From Escherichia coli (GTDB lineage Bacteria > Pseudomonadota > Gammaproteobacteria > Enterobacterales > Enterobacteriaceae), in assembly GCF_003334405.1 (NCBI RefSeq), contig NZ_QOWM01000004.1: 64,000 bases of DNA; one strand, 5' to 3'. Positions 19,880-19,951 of the stretch are shown here, piece by piece; positions within the stretch are counted from its first letter, which is position 1; each line of letters begins with the position of its first letter. Made by a program: the position numbers and the translations under genes. The notes under the pieces were generated by a model, which did no database searches, was not told the DNA's origin, and saw only the letters and a list, made by a program, of their open reading frames with translations.

Positions 19880-19890
19880 TAATCTCTATG

Positions 19891-19918
19891 CTCCGGCTGA
19901 AGGGATGTTTTTGCCGGA
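19891..19918 (-). promoter_or_regulatory. pyrC leader hairpin able to sequester the Shine-Dalgarno sequence
   Basis: Minus-strand leader reads uccggcaaaaacaucccuucagccggagcauagagauuaAUG; ccggc/gccgg stem overlaps the GGAG RBS. Confidence 0.6.
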
Positions 19919-19931
19919 CACAAAGGATAAG

Positions 19932-19947
19932 CGGAAACGTTTTCCTT
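19932..19947. promoter_or_regulatory. PurR operator upstream of pyrC
   Basis: gcggaaacgttttcct is near-palindromic and matches the PurR box core cgcaaacgttttc in 12 of 13 positions. Confidence 0.65.
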
Positions 19948-19951
19948 TGCA

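Follow-up and report, generated by a model that had tools for sequence, protein, structure and literature searches.

The window analysed here is a 64-kb stretch of Escherichia coli DNA, and the region under study lies on its minus strand, between a lipoprotein gene and the gene encoding dihydroorotase. The control region is K-12-like, with 100% identity to the yceB-pyrC region of strain MG1655, and the genes annotated under this match in the RefSeq annotation of the identical sequence are yceB (lipoprotein) and pyrC (dihydroorotase); the pyrC gene itself is also 100% identical to MG1655 pyrC. The stretch around the control region was found in every complete E. coli genome (5426/5426). Of 5425 E. 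coli genomes, 5360 carry the 91-nt control region without a single difference, as compared with just 3087 in which the surrounding 501 nt reach at least 99% identity. The features of the region are as follows, in their order along the minus strand, each with the evidence on which it was assigned.

19953-19980, minus strand: intrinsic terminator of yceB, an 8-bp GC-rich stem and a T-run abutting the pyrC -35 (terminator scan, yceB annotation)
19952-19947, minus strand: pyrC -35 hexamer GTGCAA, 17 bp 5' of the -10 (conservation, spacing to the mapped transcription start, literature)
19931-19946, both strands: PurR operator (PUR box), 16 bp, minus strand AGGAAAACGTTTCCGC, plus strand GCGGAAACGTTTTCCT (consensus match at 14/16 positions)
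19929-19924, minus strand: pyrC -10 hexamer TATCCT (TATnCT kept in 30/30 promoters; transcription start G19915 lies 9 nt downstream)
19917-19914, minus strand: start-site cluster CCGG, positions 7-10 after the -10 (reviews, transcription start map, conservation)
19893-19917, minus strand: leader hairpin, CCGGC/GCCGG, with a 15-nt loop at 19912-19898 (Rfam RF02372 structure, minimum-energy folds)
19917-19913, minus strand: 5' arm of the hairpin, CCGGC (sequence)
19897-19893, minus strand: 3' arm of the hairpin, GCCGG, overlapping GGAG (sequence)
19894-19891, minus strand: Shine-Dalgarno (SD) core GGAG, 11 nt before the AUG (sequence; kept in relatives)
19879-19877, minus strand: pyrC ATG (sequence)
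18833-19879, minus strand: pyrC coding sequence, dihydroorotase, 348 aa, the regulated gene (list of open reading frames and RefSeq annotation of the identical MG1655 sequence)

The strings quoted in the original prediction are all present on the plus strand (ccggc at 19893-19897, gccgg at 19913-19917 and gcggaaacgttttcct at 19931-19946), and the functional strand is the minus strand. On that strand the -35 is followed by the PUR box, one base, TATCCT, TTGTGT and the CCGG start cluster. The pyrC promoter was missed by a generic sigma-70 scan, and its -35 agrees with TTGACA at only three of six positions; therefore the promoter was assigned from conservation, the mapped transcription start and the literature. 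With TATCCT as the -10, C19917, C19916, G19915 and G19914 occupy positions 7, 8, 9 and 10. C19917 and C19916 are the CTP starts, the GTP start is G19915, and G19914 possibly serves as a second GTP start; the leader is 36-38 nt long. CTP starts are described as lying 6-7 nt past the Pribnow box and as adding two C's relative to the G start (PMC6524683).

For cells grown to mid-log phase in glucose M9 without pyrimidines, Kim et al. 2012 (PMC3415461, Table S1) report a single pyrC transcription start, supported by 321 reads and giving a 5' UTR of 36 nt; it maps to the minus strand at NC_000913:1121866. This coordinate corresponds to G19915 of the window, at position 9 after the -10, and the -50 to +1 string reported for this start ends in ...TATCCTTTGTGTCCG. 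Transcripts therefore start within the cluster and inside the 5' arm of the hairpin, and the situation that the original prediction had named as fatal to it, with all starts downstream of the stem, does not hold. The G19915 start is the form expected to be translatable. In minimal medium MG1655, an rph-1 strain, experiences mild pyrimidine limitation, a condition that would favour the G start. No C starts appear in the table of Kim et al. 2012 for cells in M9 glucose, which gives the G start alone; the existence of the C starts and their dependence on CTP are taken from the reviews (PMC6524683, PMC7818426).

The leader had been predicted to form a ccggc/gccgg stem, and two lines of evidence agree that it can. 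The Rfam family PyrC_leader (RF02372) matches positions 19880-19929 on the minus strand over its full length (1-50) with the same 5-bp helix, at a score of 68.7 bits against a gathering threshold of 50 bits, and the match lies directly 5' of pyrC on the same strand, ending 1 nt before the ATG at 19879. The first bases of the model fall in the untranscribed -10 (TATCCT), and its last base stops just short of the E. coli AUG, the spacer between the SD and the AUG being 4 nt longer in E. coli than in the model consensus. Additionally, the 5-bp GC helix, which joins the 5' end of the transcript to the SD, is present in the minimum-energy folds of RNAs starting at 19917 and 19916. In this structure C AAAAACATCCCTTCA comprises the final 5'-arm base and, after it, the 15-nt loop. 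The extra C's of the C-start transcripts find their partners in the leading GG of GGAG (pairs C19917-G19893 and C19916-G19894), and this GG is predicted to be at least 99% paired in the C19917-start RNA. A sixth pair, U19918-A19892, is possible only for transcripts that start further upstream. The claim that the stem includes GGAG is thus correct for the two G's and does not extend to the whole SD, of which GGA would be paired only in rare U19918-start or read-through RNA.

Folding the leader from alternative starts shows the hairpin being lost as the start moves from C19917 to G19915 and G19914. The energy of the hairpin alone is -8.1 kcal/mol for a 5' end at C19917 (five stem pairs), -5.0 kcal/mol at C19916 (four pairs), -3.0 kcal/mol at G19915 (three pairs) and +1.2 kcal/mol at G19914, where no stem is stable; the residual GGC/GCC helix of the G19915-start RNA contains no base of the SD. 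Across three modelled RNA lengths, opening GGAG is predicted to cost 5.4-5.7 kcal/mol when transcription begins at C19917, as opposed to 0.7-4.4 kcal/mol when it begins at G19915. The C19917 value is the higher one at every length, and lengthening the coding part of the modelled RNA reduces the difference from 4.7 to 1.2 kcal/mol. Since initiation takes place co-transcriptionally, the estimate from the short window is probably the more relevant. The region therefore has adjacent pyrimidine and purine starts, 6-10 nt past the -10, the choice among which alters the bases of the 5' stem, and both this result and the reviews fit the nucleotide-sensitive start-site selection with which the leader had been said to be consistent. 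Compared with dinucleotide shuffles, the hairpin is not more stable than expected (z of -0.97 and -0.38 for the two longest forms; range -0.4 to -1.0). Neither the hairpin nor the PurR box is statistically remarkable from sequence alone; both are lifted above chance by the Rfam match, the near-universal identity of the 91-nt control region among E. coli genomes, the register of the arms and the register of the box.

The region is almost certainly the native promoter-leader of E. coli pyrC, in which a start-site switch is combined with PurR control. To the sequence anatomy, start-dependent energetics, conservation and Rfam match obtained here, the literature adds the response of the start site to CTP and GTP, the blocking of translation by the hairpin, and the binding of PurR and its repression. 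In the proposed mechanism, each base of CCGG (19917-19914) is available to RNA polymerase at GTGCAA/TATCCT as a start. A high ratio of CTP to GTP would direct the start to C19917 or C19916, and low CTP together with high GTP would direct it to G19915. The two C's able to pair with GG in the SD would be present in the C-start RNA only, and the resulting CCGGC/GCCGG stem of 4-5 bp would hide the ribosome-binding site; the G-start RNA, with GGAG outside any stable helix, would be translated. The signal would be sensed by the polymerase at initiation and the output would be translational, with faster decay of the untranslated form as a secondary effect. For pyrC and pyrD of E. coli and S. Typhimurium it has been described that the two extra C's give rise to a stable 5' structure sequestering the ribosome-binding site and that lowered translation also speeds transcript decay (PMC6524683); the same CTP/GTP-sensitive start-site mechanism is described in PMC7818426. 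As summarized in these reviews, compensatory stem mutants restoring pyrimidine repression have been reported in the primary literature.

The yceB terminator (stem of 8 bp with six GC pairs, 19980-19961, followed by the T-run) forms the upstream boundary of the pyrC control region. Its T-run ends one base before the pyrC -35, and the two transcription units are thus packed with no spare sequence. Consequently, read-through RNA from yceB would carry the full 5' arm and would be predicted to fold into the repressed form.

The second element of the control region is the PUR box. It had been predicted just upstream of the leader. The box itself is borne out by its match and by the PurR repression cited below, and its position can be given more closely, within the promoter: it takes up 16 of the 17 spacer bases between the -35 and the -10, a position in which it could interfere with the promoter. 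The box is an imperfect palindrome with its central CG at 19939/19938, and matches ACGCAAACGTTTTCNT at 14 of 16 positions with the AAACGTTT core and the central CpG intact. By direct reading it is symmetric at only five of eight positions, the outer positions of the half-sites being the ones that deviate. The motif scan proposed for it returned this box as the sole site in the 64 kb with two or fewer mismatches to ACGCAAACGTTTTCNT, where 0.19 sites are expected. Taken alone the match is statistically modest, since at least one such site was present in 14 of 100 shuffled windows. A perfectly palindromic PurR pattern, ACGCAAACGTTTGCGT, gave no match with up to three mismatches, and the published asymmetric consensus was needed in order to find the box; the short core pattern GMAAACGTTTKC with up to one mismatch gave two matches versus 1.28 expected and is uninformative. 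PurR-like sites with three mismatches are also seen at 13222-13237 on the minus strand and at 40548-40563 on the plus strand; such sites occur at chance level (three found, 3.05 expected), and these two were dropped as PurR sites because their number equals the chance expectation.

Two papers bear on the function of the box. According to PMC3159470, pyrC is one of the genes for which direct repression by PurR has been established experimentally (citing Choi & Zalkin 1990 and Wilson & Turnbough 1990). PMC6245113 likewise treats PurR repression of pyrC as an experimental finding, rates it much weaker than repression of the pur genes, and gives hypoxanthine and guanine as the PurR corepressors. 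PurR bound with hypoxanthine or guanine to the spacer box should occlude the promoter, and the repression reported is modest, of a few-fold. Since the box fills the spacer, a bound PurR dimer would overlap the footprint of RNA polymerase, and from this position we infer that PurR would act by steric occlusion. In a PurR ChIP-chip study with adenine stimulation, 13 of 15 known sites were recovered and pyrC and glnB were missed (PMC3159470); the authors of that study give no reason for the missed pyrC site.

The ChIP-chip result raises the alternative that PurR does not operate through 19931-19946 in vivo and that the sequence has been kept for promoter geometry or for another protein of the LacI family. 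The weak repression (PMC6245113) and a motif match that, by itself, is within chance (14/100 shuffles) are compatible with this. We nevertheless regard it as highly improbable, because two independent studies from 1990 are cited for direct PurR repression of pyrC in the papers mentioned above, the box agrees with the consensus at 14 of 16 positions, the AAACGTTT core and the central CG among them, it is conserved only in Enterobacteriaceae, other Enterobacterales keeping the -35 and -10 around an unrelated spacer, and a near-perfect PUR box occurs independently upstream of pyrC in Vibrio.

The conservation of both elements was examined at loci from a scan with the PyrC protein of one genome per species, which gave 80 loci. 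Of these, 29 Enterobacterales loci together with the window make up the comparison set of 30 promoters, which contain 24 distinct leaders. RF02372 is too narrow for this comparison, its threshold being passed, among 20 loci, only in Escherichia and Citrobacter, and therefore register-anchored constructs were used: the 5' segment was anchored on the -10 and the 3' segment on GGAG, in order to avoid fitting the alignment to the structure. The promoter layout, with a -35 of the form (G/A)TGCA(A/T), a 17-bp spacer and a TATnCT -10, is kept in all 30 promoters. The bases C7, C8, G9 and C11 past the -10 are invariant. Pairs C7-G, C8-G and G9-C are standard in all 24 distinct leaders and pair 11 holds in 22 of them; pair 10 is G-C in 17 leaders and has changed on both sides to C-G in the two from Yersinia; the other five, from Rahnella, Pectobacterium, Brenneria, Acerihabitans and Hafnia, have a C-C mismatch there. 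The U6-A pair is restricted to Escherichia and Citrobacter. On the 3' side GCCGGAG is present in 22 of 24 leaders with the AUG 4-11 nt downstream, the remaining two, both from Yersinia, having UGCGGAG. Paired cells amount to 79.9% of the alignment in the true register and to 21-53% when the partner is slid by one to three columns. S. Typhimurium and K. pneumoniae, which were retrieved separately, have the same layout, and the Salmonella hairpin has an energy of -7.9 kcal/mol.

Covariation in the stem is weak: three of six pairs never vary, there is one two-sided change, and the observed score was reached in 32 of 500 shuffles. The arms are nearly invariant, and the covariation test consequently gave little signal. 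In Yersinia the helix between the 5' end and the SD is absent from the minimum-energy fold. Judged from the alignment, the comparative case rests on both arms being kept in register, without compensatory change. This pattern has to be weighed against the explanation that the hairpin is incidental and that pyrC is controlled by promoter activity only, through PurR and general NTP effects, with the complementarity being a by-product of a conserved start and a conserved SD. Such an explanation would account for a fold that is no more stable than shuffles and for arms that are conserved almost without covariation, and it gains from the fact that CCGG is self-complementary, so that an SD-adjacent CCGG and a start-site CCGG would pair without any selection. 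It does not account for the GCC 5' of GGAG, which lies outside the SD and yet is unchanged in 22 of 24 leaders, next to loop bases that vary, nor for Photorhabdus, where the 3' arm has moved across GGA and still pairs with positions 7-11. Moreover, the reviews report that the C-start hairpin sequesters the ribosome-binding site and that the effect is translational (PMC6524683, PMC7818426), and Rfam curates the structure. We find an incidental hairpin scarcely credible and retain the start-dependent masking of the SD as the reading of the leader.

The loops enclosed by the stem are 15-82 nt long and unalignable, with no conserved sequence. This bears on the suggestion that the leader works by transcription attenuation or as a ligand-binding riboswitch, for which a precedent exists in the UTP-sensitive attenuation of E. 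coli pyrBI and pyrE (mentioned in PMC7818426). Loops of such variable length without conserved sequence exclude a conserved ligand pocket, the leader is just 36-38 nt long and has no leader peptide reading frame, no T-run follows the stem and no terminator was called there, and neither a riboswitch family nor any other Rfam family matched at the leader. Both readings were rejected on the grounds of the missing T-run and terminator call, the variable loop and the lack of another Rfam family, and their probability is negligible. The translational start-site switch remains the preferred reading.

In the same promoters the PUR box is found in the same register with one to four mismatches in all 17 Enterobacteriaceae loci, and with three or fewer in 16 of them. 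In Erwinia, Rosenbergiella, Edwardsiella, Rahnella, Pectobacterium, Brenneria, Hafnia, Acerihabitans and Yersinia the hexamers are kept around a spacer that is unrelated to the box (at least six mismatches). The restriction of the box to Enterobacteriaceae, while the hexamers persist elsewhere, argues that the spacer has been conserved for PurR and not for promoter geometry. The start and stem core reaches across Enterobacterales and the PUR box is confined to Enterobacteriaceae, a distribution that suggests that the pyrimidine switch is the older of the two and that purine control was added to it. Vibrio hannami has a near-perfect PurR-type palindrome, GCGTAAACGTTTGCGT, approximately 60-75 nt 5' of the pyrC ATG and lacks the CCGG/GCCGG leader; purine control of pyrC in Vibrio may be independent of the start-site switch.

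The arrangement can be compared with known systems. The leader is the same element as the pyrC leader of E. coli and Salmonella represented by RF02372, for which PMC6524683 cites Wilson et al. 1992, Liu & Turnbough 1994 and Sorensen et al. 1993. The pyrD leader of E. coli and Salmonella follows the same logic, its C-start transcripts forming a 5' hairpin over the ribosome-binding site (PMC6524683, PMC7818426), and pyrD is also repressed by PurR (PMC3159470); it is a different locus, outside the window. As in pyrBI, with its reiterative transcription and attenuation, and in codBA and upp, with their start-site switching, NTP pools are sensed at pyrC through RNA polymerase at or near initiation, and all of these systems work without a dedicated pyrimidine repressor (PMC6524683, PMC7818426). 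They differ in that pyrBI, codBA and upp rely on slippage at T or A homopolymers or on a terminator, whereas the CCGG start of pyrC has no homopolymer of three or more and no terminator, its output being translational masking. With respect to the operators of PurR (LacI/GalR family) in the pur regulon, such as that of purF, the pyrC box is likewise a 16-bp imperfect palindrome with a central CG and the AAACGTTT core; in contrast to those operators, its repression is weaker, its outer half-sites deviate and it was missed by ChIP-chip.

The prediction is therefore confirmed as an observation and supported in its interpretation, and the element is a well-characterised one that is already known and already in Rfam. 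The pyrC leader is a classic case in which the polymerase senses nucleotide pools by its choice of start and the ribosome reads out the result, without a pyrimidine repressor. Nothing novel remains in the E. coli leader itself; the value of the result lies in a correct annotation and in the demonstration that small known cis-regulatory elements are recognisable from raw sequence, and it poses no new question for E. coli.

Variation among lineages was observed in both arms. In most Enterobacteriaceae except Escherichia, Citrobacter and Salmonella, GUGC at positions 3-6, which adjoins the start cluster on its 5' side and is seldom or never transcribed, is complementary to GCAC located directly after GGA, which extends the potential helix to approximately 9 bp with a bulged A and is relevant only to transcripts starting upstream; a Klebsiella or Enterobacter leader of this type reads GUGCCCGGC...GCCGGAGCAC. 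In both Photorhabdus loci, approximately 20 nt before the pyrC ATG, the 3' arm GCCGG follows GGA (CTGGAGCCGG) and does not precede it, and the shifted arm pairs with CCGGC at positions 7-11 in a minimum-energy fold of -17.6 kcal/mol (z of -2.2). We did not find either the GUGC/GCAC variation or the C-C and Photorhabdus variations described in the literature examined. It is possible, though in our estimation unlikely, that the leader serves as an insulator against upstream read-through, with the 9-bp GUGC/GCAC helix keeping such RNA translationally silent, and that the switch was repeatedly retuned or weakened, as in the C-C clade and in Photorhabdus.

Where position 10 is C, in the mismatch clade and in Yersinia, the duplexes predicted between the 5' end and the SD have energies of -4.6 to -8.3 kcal/mol, versus -10.6 to -14.8 kcal/mol otherwise. 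The distance between GGAG and the AUG is 11 nt in E. coli and E. albertii and 4-9 nt in the other 22 distinct leaders. The longer spacing resembles a 4-nt insertion (AGAG or GAGA) that creates a second, weak SD-like GAGA nearer to the AUG.

The pyrC gene, its leader and the upstream lipoprotein gene also occur in PLSDB records labelled as plasmids. One example is NZ_CP047538.1, S. Typhimurium 'plasmid unnamedA', a conjugative IncHI2A record of 329 kb, and several others are of megabase size. These records are probably mislabelled chromosomes, misassemblies or cointegrates, and leader matches in PLSDB were dropped as evidence of mobility because the records are mostly chromosome-sized or chromosome-like.

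Four further Rfam matches above the gathering score are present in the window: the RNase E 5' UTR element rne5 (41664-42000, minus strand, 260 bits) and the small RNAs SraB (43861-44029, plus strand, 211 bits), ES056 (523-614, minus strand, 120 bits) and ES036/CssrF (10709-10751, minus strand, 48 bits). All four are known E. coli features.
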